Of a DNA stretch of 64,000 nt, positions 19,712-63,537 are shown piece by piece. The first letter of the stretch is position 1. Every line of letters starts with the position of its first letter. Made by a program: the position numbers and the translations under genes. Source of the stretch: Nitrososphaeria archaeon (GTDB lineage: Archaea > Thermoproteota > Nitrososphaeria > JACIWG01); assembly GCA_050011875.1 (NCBI GenBank), contig JBEKIG010000010.1:1-64000 (forward strand), given 5' to 3'. The notes under the pieces were generated by a model. The model was given only the letters and a program-made list of their open reading frames with translations, ran no database searches and had not been told where the DNA came from.

Positions 19712-20305
19712 ATCTTCCTTTGTAAAATTGACTGAATGGCACGGTTATGGCTTGAGGTCAGATGAGTATTACAGTCTCCGAAATACTTTTTCATGTCTTA
19801 CGGAAGGTGTTCAAGAAAATTTTCATTGGTTCTTCTAATGTGTTGGCAGCCTTATTATGGCCTCGTCCGTTGGCAGTTCTCTTACATATTCCCATCCCTG
19901 CAGTATCCAGTTCCTAACTTCACTGACGGGAACAATTCTCTGGCGTGAATTACCATTCAGTCCAAGGGTGATATCGTTGGGAATCTTATACTTAAGAAAA
20001 GATTTGGATGTGATTCAGAATAAGACCTAAGACTTTTTTTCTGTCATTATCTATATATTTTTTTCAGATCTACTAATGATGATATTAAATGTCTCAACGC
20101 TAATCCAAATTCTTTTTTCAGACAACGTATGCAGTTCTGTGTGAAGGTCTTTTGATTAAGTACATGATTCTCTGATGGACTTATAAACTAACCAGATGTC
20201 TAAACGAGTTAGAGAACAGAAAAATAATCACACAACGTTTAGAATTCGATGTCTCATATACTACCCAGCATTGTTTATATCCCTCCTAAGAACTCCTAGT
20301 ATTAG

Positions 20306-21088
20306 GTGTTACTGATGGTCATTATTGGAATAGTTGGAAGCCCTAGAAAGAAAATGAGGACTGATATATTAGTCGACGCTGCATTAGATGGAGCTAAATC
20401 AAGGGACGTTAAAACAGAGAAGATATACCTCGTGGACTACAAGATAAGAACATTCACCGGCCAAGGAGATTCAGAAGAGGCTTTCAAGTACTCTCCAGAG
20501 GATTTGAATAAGCTCTGCGAGGAGGCAGATGCAATAGTCCTTGGCGCCCCAGTCTACTGGGGAGACATAAACGGTTTGACGAAAGATTTCATGGACACGG
20601 TCAGACTTAGAATTCCTAACGCAAACGGGAAGCCTGCTCTAGGAATATCTATCGCCGGAGGAACTGGTAAAGGCCTACTCTCCGGAATTCAGTCAATATA
20701 CCACTTCTTCTTTCATAAGCAAATGCGGGGAATCGACCCGACACCCGTCTCACGATTCAACCTACAGGAGGCGCAGAAGGAATTAAGGAAGAGTGGAGCC
20801 AGACTAGCTGACCTCTCAAAGGAGAAGAAACCCTTCACAGGGGAGACGGCTGATGACCGCTGGCCTGAGGTCTTAGCCTACTATTCTTCTCTGCCATATC
20901 TTAACTGTGACCCCCTCGACGAATTCATCATGCTTGCTGGTCAGCTTATCAAGATTTCTAAGGCAGACAAAGTTGAAAAGGCGAAGGCGGAGTTTGAAAA
21001 GGCAACCACCTTAATAGATGAGGGCAAGAGGGCTGAGGCAGCAAGACATGCGGTGAAATCCTATCAAATCCTTTACTTCCCTCCCTAA
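20306..21088 (+). CDS. Flavodoxin-fold NADPH-dependent FMN reductase family protein
   Basis: IIGIVGSPRK..T, ADAIVLGAPVYWG..GLTKDFMD, GKPA motifs. Confidence 0.88.
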   Translation: MLLMVIIGIVGSPRKKMRTDILVDAALDGAKSRDVKTEKIYLVDYKIRTFTGQGDSEEAFKYSPEDLNKLCEEADAIVLGAPVYWGDINGLTKDFMDTVRLRIPNANGKPALGISIAGGTGKGLLSGIQSIYHFFFHKQMRGIDPTPVSRFNLQEAQKELRKSGARLADLSKEKKPFTGETADDRWPEVLAYYSSLPYLNCDPLDEFIMLAGQLIKISKADKVEKAKAEFEKATTLIDEGKRAEAARHAVKSYQILYFPP

Positions 21089-21442
21089 CAGAGACTAATA
21101 CAGCATCACCTTCTATCATAGAAACGGTCAATACTATGTAGAATCCGAAATAGCCAGATAAGAAACCTACAACTATATGAACTCACCGAAATAAAAAAGA
21201 TATAAAATCAATCCAAAGATCCAAGATAAACTATTCAAATCTTTGAGATCTAAAATCTGTATCAGATTTGCTAGGTAAGGGTCTTAATCTTAGACTTGCC
21301 CTGTCCTTGGCTACCGACTTTCGAATGACATCACACGCGGTCTATGTTAGTGGACTAGCTTAAGTGTGGGCTTGTGTGAATGTTGGGTTCGAATATGGAA
21401 TTTCATCAGGTCGCCTCCACGCGATTTAAATTGCAGGCTTCT

Positions 21443-21910
21443 CTATGGAGGTAGCTCTTTTCCACAGTAGGCGCAATATTTTGTGTTAGGGGCTACTACA
21501 GCTCTGCCGCAGTTGACGCAGAATCTCTGAGGTAAAGGTTGGACTGCCATCGGCGGTGTCATCGATTCACCTAGGTTTGAGTAGGCAAGAAGGAAGAAGA
21601 TGCCGCCGATTATGGCGCCGAAGAATAGACCTATTATTCCGAGTATTAGGCTGTAGGTGCGCGCCTGGGCATATTTCCCCACTTCAATATTTTTCACCGT
21701 CATCCATGCAAAAATCGTCAGTATTATTCCTGGGATGAACAGCAGCAAGAAGACTATAGCTATCAAGATGGAGGGCAAGGCGATGCTAGGTACATAGACA
21801 AATAAGCCTATGACGAATAAGCCTATGAAACCAGCTGCGGTAGCTAGCAGGTAAAATATGAACCCGATGAAAGCATAAGTTCTGGCACTCCTTAATGTTT
21901 GATTGTTCAA
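21443..21910 (-). CDS. Membrane protein with C-terminal zinc ribbon
   Basis: Three hydrophobic segments; FCVNCG...KYCAYCG. Confidence 0.85.
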   Translation of the reverse strand: MNNQTLRSARTYAFIGFIFYLLATAAGFIGLFVIGLFVYVPSIALPSILIAIVFLLLFIPGIILTIFAWMTVKNIEVGKYAQARTYSLILGIIGLFFGAIIGGIFFLLAYSNLGESMTPPMAVQPLPQRFCVNCGRAVVAPNTKYCAYCGKELPP

Positions 21911-22429
21911 TTAAACCTTATTAAATATGGGTAGAAAGTTATTAAGCTTTCTTGTTCTGTTAACATAACCAATATTCAAAAACTCAGATATATTGTCATT
22001 AATATCGACCTTTTAGATGTTGAATAAATTATTAAAAGAAATGTTTTAATAATAATAATAATTATCCATCTTATGAATAAATGCATTTGGCTTAATTCTA
22101 AATCTTTTTTATTGTCTTGACAATTTCCAGGATTAGTAGCATGATAACATGTATTATTTTTGGCATATTCCTGGAAAAAAGAAGTCAGATTAGTTTTTAA
22201 TTGTAAACCTTTCGTCCCTATTCATGTCGCATCTTTAGAAGGGTGTAAAAATGGAGGCAGAAAGAAGTACCTTTTGCTATCGTTTATCTTTGATTACATT
22301 CATCCATCCATCTCTATTCTATCAGCACATACCAGTATTGTATTCGAAGACACCATACTAAGTAATTATTATAGGAAGCTGTAGCTCTATCTGTTCACTC
22401 TTGTCAAGGTCGATGTTGTAGTATAGGCC

Positions 22430-23104
22430 CTAGGCTACTAAGGTATAGTTGCCTGGTGCTGGTTTAGCAGGGGGAGAACCTGGACCCAGCTGGTTCGGAA
22501 GGTTTGTTCCAGTGTCCCACCAGTAACTTTCGGTCCAGTTAAAACCCTGAACGAAGTTCGGTGGCGGAGGGCCTACAGGGCCTGTAGCGTAAGGACCCCA
22601 CTCCCACCATACTGCGGAACCCTTCGAGTTGAAAATCGTCAAGTTAAACTCGCCTTGCATTTCTAATAGAGAAAGGTGTGAGGTGTTGTTGACATTCTTC
22701 ATCGTGATAAAGTAGACGAAGGTGTCGCCGACCTTAAAGGAGGGGACACATGTCAGGTTAAGTAGGATACCGTTTTCTTCAACCCACACCGAAACCAGCA
22801 CACTTCCAGCTCTTGCGGAGAAATCGCCATCGTATGGGAAACTTGTAGTGAACGGTGTTGTAAGAGGGGTGGTTCGAAAGAACTGGTTCGTAATGTAACG
22901 TGTAACAGTTTCGTTTTCCGTAACGGTTGTTGTCACGTTCGAAAAAGTGGTTGCAGTAGTTGTAAAGGTGGTTGAACTTGTTAAAGTAGTCGAAGTTGGA
23001 CCTCTTACCGATTCAAAAAAGAATAGGGAACCGAAGATTATGGTAAGTACTATAAACGTCACCAACAACACGTTCTTTGCCTTTATAGACGACATCATGA
23101 TCAC
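22430..23104 (-). CDS. Membrane-anchored Thr-rich protein with Ig-like (BsuPI-like) ectodomain; possibly truncated by TAG
   Basis: N-terminal TM, Thr-rich stalk, F.L.I.NSKG..VW.W...W....PGNYTLVA; the frame stays open for 23 more codons to 22358. Confidence 0.7.
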   Translation of the reverse strand: MIMMSSIKAKNVLLVTFIVLTIIFGSLFFFESVRGPTSTTLTSSTTFTTTATTFSNVTTTVTENETVTRYITNQFFRTTPLTTPFTTSFPYDGDFSARAGSVLVSVWVEENGILLNLTCVPSFKVGDTFVYFITMKNVNNTSHLSLLEMQGEFNLTIFNSKGSAVWWEWGPYATGPVGPPPPNFVQGFNWTESYWWDTGTNLPNQLGPGSPPAKPAPGNYTLVA

Positions 23105-23111
23105 ATTTATA

Positions 23112-23654
23112 CTAACCGTACGGCCCTTCTGAGTACGCTATTGTGGCGTTAACGGCGTTTACCCAGAAGTCGTAATTTATACCTGCCTCTGGAAATTTGC
23201 CTGGTGCAACTGTTTTCACATCTGCGTTAATGTCTACGTGCCAATAGTACCCACGTAGTTTTACTGTGGGGTCAGGGATCTTAAGAGATTCGCTCGATTC
23301 CAAATTTAGTATCCTACCCGTACTGGGGTCGACCGTGTATGTGTTAAGCCATCCCCCACTTACGTTGAGGAAATCAAGTTCTGTATAAACTGCATAGGAT
23401 GCCATTTGGGTAGCGTTCCATCCCTTGAAATTCATCACCGCCTTTAACGCTTCATTAGACGAGATTAAGCTGGACACATTCAGCACTGTGGACGGTGTTA
23501 AGGTCACCGTAACAGTGGAGGTAGGTGCGCTTTGGCTCTTTAGCTGCTGAATTTGGTAGAACTCTGAGAATGATAGGGAGCCGAATATTATCGTCAACAC
23601 TGCAAAGGTCACCAACAGTGTGCGTCTTAAATTGGAAGAGGACATCGCAAACAT
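23112..23654 (-). CDS. Membrane-anchored protein with PepSY-like ectodomain
   Basis: Shared N-terminal anchor; ISSNEALKAV...YYWHV...FWVNAVNATI. Confidence 0.65.
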   Translation of the reverse strand: MFAMSSSNLRRTLLVTFAVLTIIFGSLSFSEFYQIQQLKSQSAPTSTVTVTLTPSTVLNVSSLISSNEALKAVMNFKGWNATQMASYAVYTELDFLNVSGGWLNTYTVDPSTGRILNLESSESLKIPDPTVKLRGYYWHVDINADVKTVAPGKFPEAGINYDFWVNAVNATIAYSEGPYG

Positions 23655-23713
23655 TTAGGTGTCAGTTAAGGATGGATATATTGCTACTTTTAGAAAAATA
23701 AGCAGACATGGTG

Positions 23714-23727
23714 TTCTAATTTTAGAA
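23714..23727. promoter_or_regulatory. Single palindromic operator TTCTAA-NN-TTAGAA
   Basis: Exact reverse complement of the unit repeated at 24913-24989; lies upstream of the TATA region of gene 23112-23654. Confidence 0.8.
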
Positions 23728-23820
23728 TTGGGTAAGGCGTCCGGATCTTGTGATTCGCCATAGGACGATACATCCCTTAATTCACTTTTCTCAAATTTAT
23801 TTGAATAAGTTTACATAAAA

Positions 23821-24438
23821 TTATGAGGCTCTCGGCAGAACCGTGACCACCAACGGCTGAACCCAATCAGTTCCTGCCGAATTACCACTTATAGTAACCG
23901 TGTACGTCCCAGGCACAGCATTGGTGAAGTTCCCTATCACAGTTGAGTACCCACCGACAAATATCGGGTTGGTTCCGAAGCTGACTGTGAACCCAGAGCC
24001 AGACGGAACAATAGAAGCCTGCTGAAGCGTTATCGGATCATTCCACGTTGTAGTAACAGTCCCCATGCTGGAAACGTTGTACTTGTATGCAGCGGCAGAA
24101 ACCAAACACAGGATTTTGTTCTCTCCCTGAACTACCTGAACCGAACTTTGTGAAAGGAAAATTGCGAAGTATGATGCAGGTATTATTGTACCAGGAACGG
24201 TGAATTGAGTAGTGTTTGTTGTCAATTCGGTGATGGTGGTAGTAGTAAACAGAGTTTCCGTAGTTACAGTAGTGGAAGTGTTAGTAAGTGTTGCGGTCAC
24301 CGTAGAGGTGGAAGTAGTTATGCTTGAACTCTTCACACGCTGAACTTGAACAAACTCGTAAGCAGAGAGGAAACCAAAGATCAGAGTAAGCACTACAAAC
24401 GTCGCCAACAACATATTTCTTGTCTTCGGAGATGGCAT
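23821..24438 (-). CDS. Membrane-anchored Thr-rich protein with Ig-like ectodomain
   Basis: Shared N-terminal anchor; PGTYTVTISG motif; 4 nt downstream of the regulator gene. Confidence 0.8.
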   Translation of the reverse strand: MPSPKTRNMLLATFVVLTLIFGFLSAYEFVQVQRVKSSSITTSTSTVTATLTNTSTTVTTETLFTTTTITELTTNTTQFTVPGTIIPASYFAIFLSQSSVQVVQGENKILCLVSAAAYKYNVSSMGTVTTTWNDPITLQQASIVPSGSGFTVSFGTNPIFVGGYSTVIGNFTNAVPGTYTVTISGNSAGTDWVQPLVVTVLPRAS

Positions 24439-24442
24439 TATC

Positions 24443-24865
24443 TTACACCTTCTTCAACGCTCTAATCACTTCATACAGTGATGTTGCAACCCCTACCAAG
24501 CACACCACTAAAGCGAAACCATAGGTGGACGTTATCTGAGGCGGCCTCAGATATGTTAACAGAATCAGGAACGCTACAACGAAAAACGCCATGTAAGCAG
24601 TCTGGAAGGGTATGAGCGTCCTCCTCACTCTGACCATGTTCTCGAAGACAACTCTGTCCATGACGTAGCCTTTATCCTGCTCTTTGACGAGCCCAGCTTG
24701 GAGAAGCTTGTTGACGTGGTATGATGCAACGGACGAGGAGCTGAAGCCAAGGCCCTCCTGCACGTCGCTAATACCTACGGGCTTTCCCACCTTGAATATG
24801 AAACGGTAAACTCTGAGAGTTGTACCCCTTAAAATCTTTGCTTCATCTTCTACCCTCTCACTCAA
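24443..24865 (-). CDS. Membrane-anchored winged-helix transcription regulator (wHTH + 2 TM)
   Basis: LRGTTLRVYRFI...VGISDVQEGLGFSSSSVASYHVNKLLQAGLV followed by two hydrophobic helices. Confidence 0.88.
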   Translation of the reverse strand: MSERVEDEAKILRGTTLRVYRFIFKVGKPVGISDVQEGLGFSSSSVASYHVNKLLQAGLVKEQDKGYVMDRVVFENMVRVRRTLIPFQTAYMAFFVVAFLILLTYLRPPQITSTYGFALVVCLVGVATSLYEVIRALKKV

Positions 24866-24912
24866 CGGTTTTCAACCTTACGATAAGCGATAACGTATTA
24901 AGCCTTACTAAA

Positions 24913-24989
24913 TTCTAAAATTAGAAAAACACTTTCTAAAATTAGAAAAACACTTTCTAAAATTAGAAAAACACTTTCTAAAATTAGAA
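24913..24989. repeat. Four palindromic operators TTCTAAAATTAGAA at a 21-bp period
   Basis: Starts at 24913, 24934, 24955 and 24976 with identical AAACACT linkers; lies between divergent genes. Confidence 0.95.
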
Positions 24990-25048
24990 AACTGCGCTTT
25001 CCAGTCTTTCTATTAATAGCAATATATCCAGTTCATAGGTACTGGCTG

Positions 25049-25774
25049 ATGAGCACAATGTCGGAATATAAAAGACAAATAGTTATAGGAGTTTTCGCAG
25101 CTGCTGTAATAGCGTTGGTTCTGGCAGGTGGAGCAATCTACCTTCTTCCACTGCAGCCAGCGCAGACGACTTCCACAACACCCAGTTCTACAAACTCAGT
25201 TGTGGCTTCGCTCACTACAGCTACAAGCACGATTACGTTCTCTCCTACGACTACGTTCACTTCACAGTCAACTTCGTCTGGTACGACGTCTACAACAGCT
25301 ATTACAACTATAACCTCAATACATACTGGACCTACTGTAACTACTGGTTCTACGACTATACAGACCGGACCTACTGTAACTACGACTATACAGACCGGAC
25401 CTACTGTAACTGTTACTGTGACAGAACAAGTTGGTACTGCGACTGCGACCGTAACAACAACGGAGACACAAGGTCAAACGACAACTGTGACAACATTCGC
25501 CACGGTAACCAGTATAGAAAGGCTTGAAATAACGAACGTGACGGACGTTAGCCCAACTCAGGTGGTTGTAAGCGTCATGAACACCGGGAGCACAGACCAG
25601 ATCATTACAGGTATACTAGTAAACGGAGAGTCTTTATCAAGCGTGAACGGAGGCACATCAAACCCAAGCCTACCTATCAAGGTGGCAGCGAATGCATCGC
25701 TAACCATCTATCTAACCTTCAGCTCTCCACTATCATCAAACACAATATATTTTGTAACAATCCAAACCAGTTGA
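25049..25774 (+). CDS. Thr-rich surface protein with C-terminal Ig/pilin-like beta domain
   Basis: N-terminal TM, long Thr stalk, ERLEITNV...VMNTGS....ITGILVNG. Confidence 0.8.
   Translation: MSTMSEYKRQIVIGVFAAAVIALVLAGGAIYLLPLQPAQTTSTTPSSTNSVVASLTTATSTITFSPTTTFTSQSTSSGTTSTTAITTITSIHTGPTVTTGSTTIQTGPTVTTTIQTGPTVTVTVTEQVGTATATVTTTETQGQTTTVTTFATVTSIERLEITNVTDVSPTQVVVSVMNTGSTDQIITGILVNGESLSSVNGGTSNPSLPIKVAANASLTIYLTFSSPLSSNTIYFVTIQTS
25351..25410 (+). repeat. Perfect 30-bp tandem duplication in the Thr-rich stalk
   Basis: TACGACTATACAGACCGGACCTACTGTAAC x2. Confidence 0.95.
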
Positions 25775-25779
25775 TCTAA

Positions 25780-26355
25780 AAGAGTAGTGATAAGATCAAA
25801 CAATCGGTCGATAAAAGCTCCTATAAGATAGCTTTTGTCGCCCTTATAGTTACAGCTGCAGTTGTTGGAAGCCTCATCTACTCCAACGCAACATTATTCA
25901 GAAGTTCAGCGAGCACTTCAACTGTTTCCACAAGCTCGTCAAACACTACATCTACTACTACGACGACTTCATTTATATCAACAACTACAATGATCCGCAC
26001 AGTTACAGCAACGACCACAGTTACAGCAATGATCACATGTTCTCCCGCAGCCACTCAGGAAAATCCACTTATGACCTTCAGAATAAACGTTGAGTACAAT
26101 GGTCCATGGAATGCAACCGCAATCGGCTATTCGAACACCACTGCCAATCAAGCATTTCAAAGGTGCTACTACGGTAATGGAGACGGCTGGATTCTGATCT
26201 CGGACTGGAATCCCTCTGGTGGAGCTATACTCAGCTTGACCGTCCAGAAAGGGGACGCTAGCAGCGGTAACCTTACAGCTATCGGGAATGGTCAGGTAAA
26301 GAGCACTGTTGCCCCCTATGGTGCCGTGACGATCTCGATAACGGCAGTTCCATGA
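25780..26355 (+). CDS. Thr-rich membrane-anchored protein; canonical start codon missing
   Basis: The frame of ORF 25990-26355 is open from 25780 and includes a TM anchor (KIAFVALIVTAAVVGSLIY), but begins AAG AGT AGT. Confidence 0.65.
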   Translation, partial: KSSDKIKQSVDKSSYKIAFVALIVTAAVVGSLIYSNATLFRSSASTSTVSTSSSNTTSTTTTTSFISTTTMIRTVTATTTVTAMITCSPAATQENPLMTFRINVEYNGPWNATAIGYSNTTANQAFQRCYYGNGDGWILISDWNPSGGAILSLTVQKGDASSGNLTAIGNGQVKSTVAPYGAVTISITAVP

Positions 26356-26474
26356 AGCATTAGTGGCTAACCGTGATTTCAATCTTATCAGCAGGTCGCC
26401 ATGGGAATAAAGAAAAGGAATGCAAAGATTATCAGCAAATCTTTAATGTGTATCTATCAGATGGGGTGTTGACT

Positions 26475-26663
26475 ATGCCAGTAGTAATAATTGAGATGTG
26501 GGAAGGAAGAACCGAAGAACAGAAGGAAAAGCTAATGAAAGCGGTCACAAATGCTTTCGAGACAATCGGGATAAAGAAAGGGAGAGTTACCGTCATAATA
26601 CATGACATGCCAAAAAGCAACTGGAGCGTTCAAGGAGAACAAGCGTCAAAGATGAACCTCTAA
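26475..26663 (+). CDS. 4-oxalocrotonate tautomerase family protein
   Basis: M-PVVIIEMWEGRTEEQK...VTVIIHDMPKSNW, with catalytic Pro1. Confidence 0.93.
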   Translation: MPVVIIEMWEGRTEEQKEKLMKAVTNAFETIGIKKGRVTVIIHDMPKSNWSVQGEQASKMNL

Positions 26664-26813
26664 AAATTAAAGTTAACCAAACTATTCAATACGTATGGGA
26701 ATTACTTGTCAGTATAAAATCTGTTAAGACGCATATCTATCTAATATTGATACATATTTAGTGCTTAATTAAGGTCAGAAACCACTGGTCCAGTTTCTAT
26801 TTCAATCCGAGTC

Positions 26814-28259
26814 CTACTTTTTCCCTTGGTCGTACTGCACATACACTACATGGGTCGCCATGAACTCTTCCAACCCATGTTTCCCATCAGCCCCACCAAT
26901 CCCAGACTTACGCCAGCCTGCGTGAAAGCCCTGCATGGCCTCACCGTTTTCACGGTTGACATACGTCTCCCCGAACTTAATTTCCTTGCACGCCCTCATT
27001 GCAACGTCGAGATTCTGGGTGTAGATGGACGAGGTCAAACCATACTCACAATCGTTGGCGAATTCGATCGCTTCATCAAGATCCCGGAATGTGGTGATGG
27101 GTAGGACAGGCCCGAAGATCTCCTTCTGCATTATTGCACTCTTATGGTTGCAGTGCGTCAACACAGTTGGTGGGTAGAAGTAACCCCTACGGTCGACCCG
27201 ATGTCCGCCCGTGATGAGTTTGGCTCCATCTTTCACTGCCTGATGCACCGCACCGTCTACTGACTCAAGCTGCTGTTTGCTGACCAGTGGCCCCATATCC
27301 ACATCGACCCCAGCCAGTGGATCGCCAAACTTGGTCTCCTCCATCGCCTCGGTGACTTTCGATATGAAGGCGTCAGCGACGGACTCTTGCACGTAGACTC
27401 GTTCCGCGCAATTGCAGACTTGCCCCGTGTTAATGATACGCGAATCTCGGATAGCTTTCGCAGCCAAATCTAAATCCGCGTCAGACATTACGATCGCCGG
27501 AGCTTTACCCCCAAGCTCAAGCGAAACCTTAGTGACATTGTTCGCCGCGGCTCGCATCACCTCTATTCCGCCCTCGACGCTGCCAGTCATACTCACCATC
27601 CCGACTTTTGGGTGCCCAGCCAGTGCATTACCGACAATCGCGCCGCGCCCGGACACCAGATTGAATACACCTTCAGGAAGGGACGATTCCGCAACGATTC
27701 GCGCGAACTCGAACGCGTTGTTAGGAGTATTACAGCTCGGCTTGATTACGATGGTATTCCCGGTTACCAACGCAGGAGCCATCTTGCGGGCGATGAGGAA
27801 AAATGGGAAGTTCCAAGGTAGAATCCCAGCTACCACACCGATCGGCAGCTTGAAAAGGAAGATGTTTTCGTTTGAGCGGTCGCTCTGAATAATTTCACCC
27901 TCGTACCTGCGGGCGAACTCGGCCGTATAGTCAATGTAATCTGCCATGGAATTCACTTCGAACCTGGCAAGCGGTAAGATCTTGCCTTGCTCCTCCGAAA
28001 TGGTCCGCGCAAATTCTTCACTGCGTTTCCTGATAACCTGAGCAAGCTCGTGCAAATACTTGGCTCGCTCAATGGCCGGCTTTTTGGCCCATGTCTTTTG
28101 CGCTCTTTCAGCCGCCGTGACGGCTAGGTCGACATCGGCGGCAGCGCCGTCTGGAATCTCAGAAATCACCTTCTCCGTTGAGGGGTTCGTCACCGAGATC
28201 ATTTTACCAGTGGAGTGAGACACGAACTTTCCATCAATAAACATCTGATACCGATTCAT
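26814..28259 (-). CDS. aldA: NAD-dependent aldehyde dehydrogenase, lactaldehyde/glycolaldehyde dehydrogenase type
   Basis: ILPWNFP, LELGGKAP, GQVCNC and EIFGPV motifs; ARRYEGEIIQSDR and QGFHAGWRKSGIGGADGKHG recognised as AldA-like. Confidence 0.9.
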   Translation of the reverse strand: MNRYQMFIDGKFVSHSTGKMISVTNPSTEKVISEIPDGAAADVDLAVTAAERAQKTWAKKPAIERAKYLHELAQVIRKRSEEFARTISEEQGKILPLARFEVNSMADYIDYTAEFARRYEGEIIQSDRSNENIFLFKLPIGVVAGILPWNFPFFLIARKMAPALVTGNTIVIKPSCNTPNNAFEFARIVAESSLPEGVFNLVSGRGAIVGNALAGHPKVGMVSMTGSVEGGIEVMRAAANNVTKVSLELGGKAPAIVMSDADLDLAAKAIRDSRIINTGQVCNCAERVYVQESVADAFISKVTEAMEETKFGDPLAGVDVDMGPLVSKQQLESVDGAVHQAVKDGAKLITGGHRVDRRGYFYPPTVLTHCNHKSAIMQKEIFGPVLPITTFRDLDEAIEFANDCEYGLTSSIYTQNLDVAMRACKEIKFGETYVNRENGEAMQGFHAGWRKSGIGGADGKHGLEEFMATHVVYVQYDQGKK

Positions 28260-39859: not shown

Positions 39860-39937
39860 TGGTAGCGAGGGGTGGATTTGAACCACTGATCTGCGGGTTA
39901 TGAGCCCGCCGGGATAACCTAGCTTCCCCACCTCGCT
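39860..39937 (-). tRNA. Initiator tRNA-Met(CAU)
   Basis: A1:U72, three G:C pairs in the anticodon stem (GCGGG-CTCATAA-CCCGC), encoded CCA. Confidence 0.96.
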
Positions 39938-42165: not shown

Positions 42166-42460
42166 ATGAACATACGCCGGTGGACAGGTTACGGAAGAAA
42201 TCCTGTGGAAACTCCTTCCTCCGAGTAAAAGCGTGGCGCTGAGAAGCGCAGCGGTAGACCGTTGGCAACGGAACAGAAACGACACCAACCTAGACGCATG
42301 ACGATGATAAATATTTGAGAAGGTCTAGCAATTGGGTTAAACGGCCGACCCACGCGGAGCAAGACCAAATAGGGCGATGTGCATTTACTCAAAGTCCAGG
42401 TAGGTCGCATAGTCTAATACTGTCAAAACAGAAGAAGGGTTACAGCCGGCTTATGTTCAT
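42166..42460 (+). ncRNA. rnpB: RNase P RNA
   Basis: Terminal helix ATGAACATA-CGCCGG / CCGGC-TTATGTTCAT; conserved GGAAACTCC, ACAGAAAC, GGAGCAAG and AAACAGAAG..GGGTTA regions. Confidence 0.92.
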
Positions 42461-51496: not shown

Positions 51497-51509
51497 TATG
51501 AACCGATCA

Positions 51510-52106
51510 TTAGATGTGACGTTTTAACCTTTCGGAAACAGCTTTCCAAATTAAATTATGAACAGACTCTATCGACAGATTTCCGTCTACAATGACCCAC
51601 TTATTTTCACTTGCTAATTTAATAAAACACCTTCTTACACGTTCCAAATATTCAAGATCTTTCTCATGAATGTCACGATCATGCTCCTTCCTTCTGAAGG
51701 AAACATTAGGTTGAAGATCCAAAACTATCGTTAAATTTGTACGAGGCAAATGCGAATCTAAACTTTTTAACCATTGGATAGGAAGATTGTTGGCTAATCC
51801 ATAAGCCCAATTTGATTGATAATACCTATCGAACACAATTGTATATCTTTGTTCACTTAATTCTTCGATCTTAGGTTTTAACTCCCACCTGTTAGCTGAC
51901 AATAACATATGTTTCACTTCTAAAGGTACTTGAATTTCGTTTGATAATATTTTCTTAATTAGTTTGCCAACAGGTGTCTTGTAATCTGGAAAGGACATTT
52001 TAGTTGCACTAACACCATTTTCCTTTAGCTTTTCAACTAGTAATTCTGTCTGAGTCTTTTTCCCAGATTGGTCTATTCCTTCTATTGCAATTAGCGACGG
52101 CATCAT
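51510..52106 (-). CDS. tmk: Thymidylate kinase
   Basis: IEGIDQSGKKTQ, FP.Y, ANRWE, DRY..S..AYG. Confidence 0.96.
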   Translation of the reverse strand: MMPSLIAIEGIDQSGKKTQTELLVEKLKENGVSATKMSFPDYKTPVGKLIKKILSNEIQVPLEVKHMLLSANRWELKPKIEELSEQRYTIVFDRYYQSNWAYGLANNLPIQWLKSLDSHLPRTNLTIVLDLQPNVSFRRKEHDRDIHEKDLEYLERVRRCFIKLASENKWVIVDGNLSIESVHNLIWKAVSERLKRHI

Positions 52107-52161
52107 ACATTAATACATCAAAGATAGACTTAAAAAATGATGCCATTATGGGTATAAACAT

Positions 52162-53294
52162 ATGAAAAGGATAGGTTTCATCGTGAATCCCATAGCCGGG
52201 CTAGACTGAAATAGGGGCCAGGCGGCGTTTTGGGATTAAAAGGAACCGATGATCGTGTAATAGTAGAGTTAGCGATGGTAGAAAAGGTTCCGCCGACAGC
52301 CCAAAAAAAAGCCTTCGAATTCGCCGAGAAGATTGCGAAACTTATAAAAAATGATTTCTGTTTCTATACTTCTAACTCTAAAATGGGTGAAGATTATTTA
52401 CGAAAAAAAGGAATTAATTTTGAAGTAGCCTATGAATATAAAGGTAAGTTTAGCACGAGTAGAGATACTGAGAAGCTTTGTGAAAAGCTTATGACAGTTC
52501 GTGTTGAAGCAATATTTTTTGTAGGAGGAGATGGCACTGCTTGTGACATCTTCCGTGTAATAGGAAATAAAGTGCCTCTTATAGGAATACCTGCCGGAGT
52601 TAAGATGTACAGCGGCATATTTTGTACTACAGTCGATACTTCAGTCAAAGCTCTTTCCAATTTTTTGGAAGGATCTTACGAATTATGCGAAGAAGAAATA
52701 ATCGATATAAATGAAGAAAATTATAGAAAGGATGAATTTAATCTTAAAGTATATGGTTATGCTTCGACTTTAAAGGAATTGGAGAATATCCAAGGATCGA
52801 AATCGGATTATTATGGACAGGACAAGGATAATCAAGAAAGGATTGCAAAGTACTTTACAGAAAATATGGAGAAAGAAACTTATTACATATTGGGACCCGG
52901 AACTACAGTCAAGGCAATACCAAAAATGCTGAATCAACCATATACGCTCTTAGGTGTCGATATACTTCTCGAAGGAAAGGTGATTGCACGAGATGTTGAT
53001 GAAAAACACATCTTGAACATTACTAAAGGAAGGAATGTGAAACTTGTTCTGAGCCCCTTAGGTGGACAGGGGATAATACTAGGCCGAGGCAACCAGCAAA
53101 TCTCCTCTAAAGTGTTGCGAAGAATTAAAAGGCATGACTTGATATTACTAGCAACAGAAAAAAAACTAAAAGGTTTACGGAGGAATTACCTAATTGCTGA
53201 TATTGATGATAGTTTTGTTCGCAAAATATTGGGAGGATATGTACGGGTATTGGTAGATTATAACATAGAAAGGGTTCTGAAATTAACCTATTAA
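52162..53294 (+). CDS. ATP-NAD kinase family protein, intron-containing: join(52162..52204,52222..53294), 371 aa
   Basis: The spliced N-terminus [24 protein letters not shown] matches the family motif NPIAGxGGxxGLKGTD; also GGDGTA, GIPAGVKMYSG, GPGTT, LGRGNQQIS. Confidence 0.9.
52205..52221 (+). other. 17-nt BHB intron in a protein-coding gene
   Basis: GCCG-GGCT-AG^A-CTGAAATAGG-GGCC-AG^G-CGGC: outer helix GCCG/CGGC, 4-bp central helix GGCU/GGCC, two 3-nt bulges; removal restores both frame and motif. Confidence 0.88.
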
Positions 53295-53335
53295 AAAGAT
53301 TTAACCTACAATTATTTAAAGGTAGGAGCAGGAGC

Positions 53336-63299: not shown

Positions 63300-63384
63300 T
63301 GCGGGGGGTGGGATTTGAACCCACGAACCCCTTCGAGACGAGGTTCTGAGCCTCGCGCCTTTGACCTATCTTGGCAACCCCCGC
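63300..63384 (-). tRNA. tRNA-Leu(CAG)
   Basis: GCGGGGG/CCCCCGC-A acceptor, CGAGG-CTCAGAA-CCTCG anticodon arm, long variable arm. Confidence 0.95.
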
Positions 63385-63438: not shown

Positions 63439-63537
63439 CGCCGGGGAAGGGACTTGAACCCTTGAAACGGTAGAGCCGTTACCGGCTATCTTGTTGGATC
63501 TCGAGGCCGGCCCTTTCGACCACTCAGGCACCCCGGC
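63439..63537 (-). tRNA. tRNA-Ser(CGA) with a 12-nt canonical 37/38 intron (63488-63499)
   Basis: GCCGGGG/CCCCGGC-G acceptor; CCGGC-CTCGAG[ATCCAACAAGAT]A-GCCGG; long variable arm. Confidence 0.92.

Follow-up and report, generated by a model that had tools for sequence, protein, structure and literature searches.

Comparative evidence for bulge-helix-bulge introns in an ATP-NAD kinase family gene and the elongation factor 2 gene of Nitrososphaeria

How can a gene be expressed if its reading frame closes after fifteen codons? Positions 52162 to 53294 of the DNA analysed here, a stretch of 64,000 nt (the window) from contig C10 of G000, a draft Nitrososphaeria genome of 2.64 Mb in 119 contigs, raise this question for a gene of the ATP-NAD kinase family; coordinates refer to the window unless another contig is named. 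Translation of the window from ATG 52162 gives 15 residues and meets TGA at 52207-09, and the frame that continues downstream lies in another register, has a stop within 52205-52221 and then stays open over 356 codons, up to the stop that ends at 53294. Removal of the 17 nt at 52205-52221 fuses the two frames at the junction GGGCTAG/GCGGCGTT and gives back the glycine-rich motif of the family's N-terminus, matching that of 13 uninterrupted homologues. We consider it highly likely that the locus is a functional kinase-family gene whose insert, placed after the first base of codon 15, represents an intron of the bulge-helix-bulge (BHB) type, very probably spliced constitutively by EndA and RtcB.

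The interrupted gene and its fold

A first-pass annotation, made from the letters of the window, had proposed a BHB intron in a gene of this family, a proposal now borne out by conservation, covariation, selection on both exons and the machinery present in the genome. The coordinates and letters that it gave, including the frame from ATG 52162 to TGA 52207-09, were confirmed from the sequence and its translation, and the fold that it described (GCCG/CGGC and GGCU/GGCC helices, AGA and AGG bulges, a short inner helix) was reproduced by RNAfold. The structure of minimum free energy (MFE) for 52185-52240, at -20.3 kcal/mol, contains this BHB together with an extended exonic helix, or clamp, that the annotation had left out (Table 1). 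Each bulge sits 3' of the central helix on its own strand; in the BHB of pre-tRNAs the bulges lie 3' of the central helix on both strands, and the tRNA introns of G000 show an equal arrangement. Cutting after the second base of each bulge excises exactly 52205-52221, and the claim that this excision coincides with the deletion required by homology holds as well, as the frames join and the family motif is restored.

The identity of the product is set by exon 2, which matches PF01513 over profile positions 9-130 of 130 (4.7e-19; 69.4 bits, gathering cut-off 25.5) as well as PF20143 (2.9e-08; 33.9 bits, gathering cut-off 23.7) and whose translation holds VGGDGT, with the GGDG motif. The NAD(+) kinase equivalogs NF002984 and NF002521 gave 25.2 and 24.3 bits, under their thresholds of 326 and 309, and searching PDB by sequence returned no relative of the protein. 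Because the scores fall far under the equivalog cut-offs and no solved relative is found by sequence, the predicted product of 52162-53294 is to be named as kinase-family only and not as an NAD(+) kinase.

Conservation across relatives

Matches to the kinase-family protein were found in 21 of 41 genomes of the class, and the upstream region was inspected at 17 loci. Four of these carry an insert at the identical codon, namely those of G000, its congener G001, and G003 and G004, which represent two other genera of the same family. The remaining 13 loci, outside the subfamily, have no insert and read through NP[IV]AGMGG.VGLKGTD; genus g2 of this family and families f3 and f6 are represented among them, and one is a second copy in G003. 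Scanning metagenomes added 11 relatives, with the insert present in 10 of the 10 that contain the full region; L034 is identical to the window, and L041 ends inside the insert. The subfamily thus has a same-site insert in 14 of 14 sequences with the region (the window, G001, G003, G004 and ten metagenome loci). A pattern built from the known sequences, which detects near-identical arms only, was searched for in 401 Nitrososphaeria genomes and hit four of them, each from this family; the reversed-pattern control gave 0. In a tree of 25 rows, which leaves out L006, L013, L018 (partial), L022 (a frame-shifted copy) and L034 (window-identical), the 14 intron-bearing proteins form a single clade (100/100) on a long branch. 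This distribution is compatible with the intron having been gained once, by the ancestor from which a subfamily present today in three genera of a single Nitrososphaeria family descends.

The second G003 copy, L022 (G003:C5:33149-34206, minus strand), was considered as an intron carrier in its own right and rejected, as its frame changes by 1 nt near residue 250 with no insert of BHB size. It is a more distant copy lacking the intron, and its frame break would represent either an assembly error or decay.

The inserts vary in length, measuring 17 nt in six of the 14 sequences, 16 nt in three, 18 nt in three and 15 nt in two; those of 16 and 17 nt shift the frame, and all five that would keep it (15 or 18 nt) contain TAA or TAG. 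An artefact of assembly or sequencing, for which the draft state of G000 might be invoked, has a negligible probability, being refuted by the presence of the insert, with differing sequences and lengths, in the genomes of four species and in ten metagenome contigs, all assembled independently. A pseudogene disabled by a small insertion would account for the frame broken at codon 15, and is very improbable: the insert persists at one site over three genera at varying length, and the 356 codons of exon 2 are intact in every one of the 14 sequences, the proteins being 55-100% identical, with ratios of nonsynonymous to synonymous substitution rates (dN/dS) of 0.07-0.41 in nine pairs.

Exon 1 gives information of the same kind. 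Over its 14 codons in 12 distinct sequences, the variable sites fall 3/2/9 on first, second and third codon positions. Six codons vary only synonymously (Gly5, Val8, Asn9, Pro10, Ile11 and Leu14), with all four codons in use at each of Gly5 and Val8 and three at Ile11. Such a pattern is the signature of a translated frame, in a gene under purifying selection, and it argues both against a pseudogene and against a start at TTG 52230.

This last point is relevant to the possibility that the insert is never removed and that a shorter protein, devoid of the first strand and of one half of the glycine-rich loop, is made from TTG 52230 or from further downstream, the 15-codon frame being an upstream mini-ORF (open reading frame) or untranslated. 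The in-frame TTG does open a frame of 354 aa, it is present in all aligned sequences, and a start of this type is what gene callers would probably pick. However, this TTG also encodes Leu in the conserved motif G(V/S)LGLKG, which makes conservation of the codon expected in any case, and exon 1, besides its translated-frame substitutions, is homologous to the N-terminus of the uninterrupted homologues. Nor would a leader need a BHB held by compensatory change, or an insert whose length is free between 15 and 18 nt. We regard a downstream start as distinctly improbable.

The structure itself was examined in an alignment of 13 sequences, 12 of them distinct. In the distinct sequences every cell of the outer and central helices, H1 and H2, is paired. 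Pair 19-36 of the central helix is CG in eight and UA in four, with no exception, joining an exonic third base of a Leu codon (C/U, synonymous) to an intronic G/A; two other pairs alternate between G-C or U-A and G-U. Over all pairs 96.6% of 204 cells are paired, and sliding the partner by 1-3 columns lowers this to 31-57%. When given the 13 sequences with no structure supplied, RNAalifold predicted H1, H2, both bulges and the exonic clamp. The comparison of orthologues for intron presence and BHB covariation, an approach put forward in the first-pass annotation, has thus yielded inserts throughout the subfamily and one compensatory pair in the core. Helices appear to flank the BHB on both sides, the inner side being weak. 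The clamp is paired in 95.2% of cells with no covariation. Built from Asn-Pro and Gly-Leu codons (AAUCC.A / U.GGAUU), it may simply follow from the coding sequence, since the uninterrupted homologue L007 has the same complementarity (AATCCTA ... TAGGATT). Likewise, the complementarity in L007 indicates that the site in the kinase gene could have formed a hairpin before the intron arrived.

A stable hairpin at the site, and the net change of frame required by the 16- and 17-nt versions, could also be read as the marks of programmed frameshifting or of bypass, in which the ribosome would cross the insert by hopping with no RNA splicing. The 15- and 18-nt versions, however, are in frame and bear stops, so that one frameshift cannot serve all of them; no matched take-off and landing codons for a bypass were seen flanking the insert, and what is conserved is specifically a pair of 3-nt bulges 4 bp apart. 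Such a translational solution is scarcely credible, in our opinion no more so than a pseudogene.

Elongation factor 2 and the splicing machinery

The suspicion, voiced in the first-pass annotation, that other genes of this genome are broken in the same way proved right for at least one. The whole of G000 was scanned on both strands for BHB-like motifs whose excision fuses a start-bearing upstream frame to a long downstream frame, and among the 55 candidates of the strict version, most of them with weak A+U-rich helices, a 31-nt BHB intron in the gene for elongation factor 2 (aEF-2) stood out. From ATG 27885 on contig C12 the gene opens with MPRYKSTTEALKIIGNKDQIR, followed at codon 22, just before the AHVDHGKT loop, by an insert with a TAG inside it. 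The insert has arms CAGA/UCUG and UUCG/CGAA, bulges AAA and UUA and a strong inner hairpin. After it comes a frame of 708 codons that starts with LGVVAHVDHGKT and contains GTP_EFTU from profile position 7 and four EF-G domains. Splicing would give ...DQIR-N-LGVVAHVDHGKT, which matches the ...DQIRNFG[IV]IAHVDHGKT of relatives.

Elongation factor 2 is encoded by an essential gene, and in G000 it is single-copy. Thirty EF-2 loci were compared: seven have the insert, all in this family, 19 are uninterrupted (families f4-f7), three show an N-terminal part beyond an intein and one is truncated. Once the missing ends were retrieved, G008, a member of this family, proved to have both a BHB intron and an intein, and G010, G035 and G036 an intein only. 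In the eight sequences with the insert its length is 26-32 nt, and it always breaks the frame or bears a stop. Of the cells in the canonical register 96.6% are paired, and the central helix is invariant, while one inner pair shows a compensatory change, being UA in five and CG in three; RNAalifold prefers a register with a 3-bp central helix. A pattern search found the insert in 9 of 401 Nitrososphaeria genomes, all nine in this family, and in 0 of 391 others; in a tenth genome of the family, 76% complete, no EF-2 was found at all. Because an essential, single-copy aEF-2 cannot be a pseudogene in nine species, we infer that this lineage must splice mRNA at BHB motifs. This makes the aEF-2 intron the strongest indirect support for the one in the kinase-family gene. 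The two share the same genomes and machinery, and both lie near the 5' end, just before a glycine-rich nucleotide-binding loop. They differ in that the aEF-2 intron is longer, with a strong inner helix of 7-8 bp, in that its host is essential and single-copy, and in that it occurs in all four genera of the family with data, compared with three for the kinase-family intron.

The inteins of aEF-2 are a feature in their own right. They measure about 630 aa, follow the GK of the P-loop and were seen in four genes, at G008:C2 (L058/L177), G010:C1 (L061/L178), G035:C9 (L064/L179) and G036:C6 (L180), where the open frames reach 1324-1372 aa. In G008 the BHB intron is followed 35 nt downstream by the intein, and this organism must therefore splice the RNA as well as the protein.

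A census across two genomes was used to look for further cases. The 1.74-Mb genome G004 was tiled and scanned as G000 had been, with candidates required to have junction peptides conserved in register, strict 3-nt bulges, seven contiguous pairs and an insert breaking the frame in both genomes; relaxed or in-frame introns can escape these criteria. The census gave 78 conserved junction pairs with an insert of at most 70 nt. In 35 pairs the helix score reached at least 15 in each genome; every one of these was inspected, and only those of the kinase-family and EF-2 genes were convincing. Others proved to be ordinary gene starts or boundaries (uS4, eL42, SUI1, EF-1alpha, TiaS and a PHP-domain gene). 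Since the scan is strict, two mRNA introns in G000 is a lower bound. A filter demanding that the BHB be the MFE structure of a short window dropped both true sites, and none of its 39 candidates was convincing (they included the start of uL14 and a PfkB-family N-terminus that is coding). The sites C2:129512, C12:66766 and C7:106291 matched no Rfam family at E values up to 0.1 and were set aside, the frames downstream having ordinary Met starts. Likewise, cbf5 of G000 is uninterrupted, with TruB_N in one open frame of 346 aa.

One more candidate, a methyltransferase gene at G000:C5:75932-76752, has a GTG start with a strong GGAGG in one frame, its body in another, and a BHB-like stretch of 31 nt between them, at C5:75965. 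It was rejected as an intron, as the G001 homologue reads straight through this stretch. That homologue starts from a TTG, whose G000 counterpart is CTG.

The enzymes that such splicing would need can be recognized in G000. There are two genes of the EndA family (PF01974; 98.8 and 80.7 bits, ORFs of 182 aa on contig C9 and 178 aa on contig C12), and one of the subunits retains the Tyr/His/Lys set, which in the other is without the His. We read the 182-aa protein as catalytic and the 178-aa protein as structural, in an enzyme of the hetero-oligomeric type; a passage of one review assigns the EndA of Thaumarchaeota to the alpha2beta2 type (PMC4090602). A single RtcB gene scored 565 bits.

The natural substrates of this machinery are also present. 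ARAGORN reported nine intron-bearing tRNAs in G000, one of which was discarded for an implausible intron of 2637 nt. The introns of the other eight span 12-56 nt, and since lengths of 12 and 16 nt are among them, an intron of 17 nt would be within the normal size range of the enzyme in this genome. In five of the eight the cut rule reproduces the intron ends given by ARAGORN at shift 0, with 7/7 pairs for Tyr, Pro and Met and 6/7 for Ser-CGA and Ala, and these five include the introns of 12 and 16 nt; the other three have their best register 1-2 nt away, with fewer pairs. Compared with the organism's own pre-tRNA introns (for example those of tRNA-Ser(CGA), tRNA-Pro(GGG) and tRNA-Tyr), the kinase-family intron has the same geometry, the same cut rule and a comparable length, and it shares the 5' bulge AGA with three of them; it differs in its host, an mRNA whose exonic arms are constrained by codons, whereas those of the tRNA introns are constrained by the anticodon stem. 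The tRNA-Ser(CGA) gene lies within the window and is overlooked by ARAGORN without its intron mode.

Table 1. Positions of the kinase-family gene, its predicted fold and the further features discussed in the text
Feature	Position	Strand	Remarks
Exon 1	52162..52204	+	ATG, 13 more codons and base 1 of codon 15; fits N-termini of uninterrupted homologues (M..GF.VNPIAGM...)
Putative BHB intron, 17 nt, ACUGAAAUAGGGGCCAG	52205..52221	+	If retained, translation stops at TGA 52207-09
Exon 2	52222..53294	+	Bases 2-3 of codon 15, 356 codons, stop; ATP-NAD kinase family N- and C-terminal domains
BHB core	52195..52226	+	RNAfold; H1, H2, two bulges and inner helix
Outer helix H1	GCCG 52195-98 / CGGC 52223-26	+	4 bp, RNAfold
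Central helix H2	GGCU 52199-202 / GGCC 52216-19	+	4 bp, RNAfold
3-nt bulges	AGA 52203-05, AGG 52220-22	+	Opposite strands, 4-bp helix between, RNAfold
Inner helix	52206-07 / 52214-15	+	2 bp, RNAfold
Extended exonic helix (clamp)	AAUCCCA 52186-92 / UGGGAUU 52230-36	+	7 bp, RNAfold
A/T-rich TATA-like block, CTTAAAAAA	52129..52137	.	In the 55-nt spacer 52107-52161 between the thymidylate kinase gene (start 52106, minus) and ATG 52162
tRNA genes	39863-39937, 63300-63384, 63439-63537	-	Three in window
tRNA-Ser(CGA), 12-nt intron	63439..63537	-	BHB substrate in window (GGC CUCG aga ... CAAG aua GCC); ends fit cut rule
Archaeal RNase P RNA	42172-42454	+	199 bits
aEF-2 gene	G000:C12:27885-30105 (outside window)		Putative intron 27949-27979, 31 nt; strict-scan candidate

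Weighing the intron and its place among known systems

Several observations weigh against the intron in the kinase-family gene. The fold is only moderately better than that of shuffled sequence (z = -2.24; 5 of 200 shuffles fold equally well), and it depends on the flanks, the MFE being a shifted register with flanks of 0-6 nt and the BHB with flanks of 10-15 nt. The scans of G000 gave no excess over three decoy pairing rules, either in the loose version (5363 motifs against 5482, 6482 and 4750) or in the strict one (55 against 57, 69 and 53). In the alignment, the 2-bp inner helix is paired in 87.5% of cells, is unpaired in 3 of the 12 distinct sequences and is omitted by RNAalifold. Two of five covariation measures lie within the range of shuffles (both-side changes, 289/500; further pair types, 473/500), a single pair of the BHB core shows full compensatory change, and coding sequence makes up three of the four core strands (H1 on both sides and H2 on its 5' side), so that protein constraint explains part of the conservation. 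A search for RNA sequencing runs over 51500-53300 listed none. A BHB-like shape whose excision repairs a frame is not rare in this A+T-rich genome, and a lone motif is only weakly above chance. Because the motif counts show no excess over decoys, the case for the intron rests on the comparative data.

With the comparative data included, we favour splicing by the tRNA machinery, which would proceed as follows. The transcript probably starts at ATG 52162 or a few bases from it, and 52186-52236 would fold into a helix, a 3-nt bulge, a 4-bp helix, a second 3-nt bulge and a helix. The heteromeric endonuclease, made of the catalytic 182-aa and the structural 178-aa subunit, would cut after the second base of each bulge and RtcB would join the exons, giving an mRNA that encodes the glycine-rich N-terminal motif of the family. 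After a single gain the intron would have drifted in length between 15 and 18 nt with the BHB retained, and the same EndA/RtcB machinery would also process the EF-2 mRNA of these organisms. Constitutive splicing of a tolerated insertion is the most economical reading.

The surroundings of the gene bear on its expression. The TATA-like block is separated from ATG 52162 by 24 nt and from the start of the divergent thymidylate kinase gene by 22 nt; CTTAAAAAA and the preceding AAAGATAGA are kept in 14 upstream regions, with 1-3 letters differing in G004, G003 and L043. Since the spacing of the block from both starts fits general archaeal promoter geometry, it suggests a single promoter for two leaderless or near-leaderless transcripts. 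A leaderless or near-leaderless mRNA would be translated from its 5'-terminal AUG, and without splicing only a peptide of 15 residues would result. A homing endonuclease or a duplicated gene-start cassette beside the intron was also considered and rejected, the three neighbours covered by the profile scan being the divergent thymidylate kinase, an HD-domain protein and an STT3/AglB-type transferase. Elsewhere in the window, positions 20001-28000 have a G+C content of 0.42-0.46, compared with about 0.36 in the remainder, and no Rfam family reaches its gathering score there.

Crenarchaeal cbf5 pre-mRNA is said to contain a BHB intron, a finding attributed to Watanabe in 2002 and Yoshinari in 2006. 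The statement of the first-pass annotation that archaeal mRNA introns are established mainly for this gene agrees with passages of PMC7714728 and PMC2738675. In the former, crenarchaeal cbf5 appears as the sole mRNA BHB intron besides a case in a Haloferax 5' untranslated region (UTR) (PMC7714728); in the latter, no cbf5 intron is listed for Cenarchaeum and Nitrosopumilus, and predicted introns in other protein genes are described as unconfirmed (PMC2738675, Yokobori 2009). The cbf5 intron of Desulfurococcales and Sulfolobales, as presented in the same source, resembles the kinase-family intron in occurring in hosts with a hetero-oligomeric EndA, in being restricted to a clade and in fitting a single gain (PMC2738675). 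The gene and the lineage are different, a pseudouridine synthase in Crenarchaeota as opposed to a member of the ATP-NAD kinase family in Nitrososphaeria. The BHB intron of HVO_1309 in Haloferax volcanii is likewise an mRNA substrate, outside tRNA and rRNA, and in the account of PMC7714728 its removal appears to matter for expression; it lies in the untranslated leader of a euryarchaeal gene and has been verified in vivo and in vitro, whereas the kinase-family intron lies in the reading frame (PMC7714728). HAC1 and XBP1, processed by IRE1 and a tRNA ligase (RtcB in metazoa), offer a further parallel, being short mRNA introns that change the frame and are independent of the spliceosome, as outlined in parts of PMC4090602 and PMC13149111. 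Splicing of cbf5 has been shown experimentally, and that of HAC1 and XBP1 uses a different endonuclease and recognition motif in a regulated stress switch (PMC4090602, PMC13149111), whereas the kinase-family intron is known from sequence alone. In the literature searched, no BHB intron was reported in a gene of the NAD kinase family or in aEF-2.

The parallel with HAC1 and XBP1 raises the question of regulation, and the first-pass annotation had suggested that the kinase-family intron could be a splicing-dependent switch. Production of EF-2 and of the kinase-family protein could depend on EndA and RtcB in such a way that the two mini-introns, instead of being passively tolerated, act as a checkpoint that couples translation capacity and nucleotide- or NAD-linked activity to the state of RNA splicing and repair, as an archaeal counterpart of the regulated HAC1/XBP1 type. 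We consider such a checkpoint rather unlikely, and hold constitutive splicing of a tolerated insertion to be the better description of the kinase-family gene.

Our results point to a BHB intron that is real and conserved, whose host gene and lineage are both new and whose kind is known but very sparsely populated, and the comparative support for it is about as strong as genome data by themselves allow. In the literature searched, splicing of coding sequence at a BHB in Archaea is represented by cbf5 only, so the kinase-family gene and aEF-2 would be the second and third host genes, in another phylum-level lineage. Standard gene callers truncate such genes: under translation table 11 the N-terminal motif is missing from the kinase-family protein and the beginning of the GTP-binding domain from EF-2. 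With lengths of 15-32 nt, these introns offer short substrates for studying how BHB introns enter coding sequence and persist in it. More generally, the tRNA-splicing machinery of these organisms would have mRNA among its regular substrates, and a regulatory role of such introns becomes directly testable.

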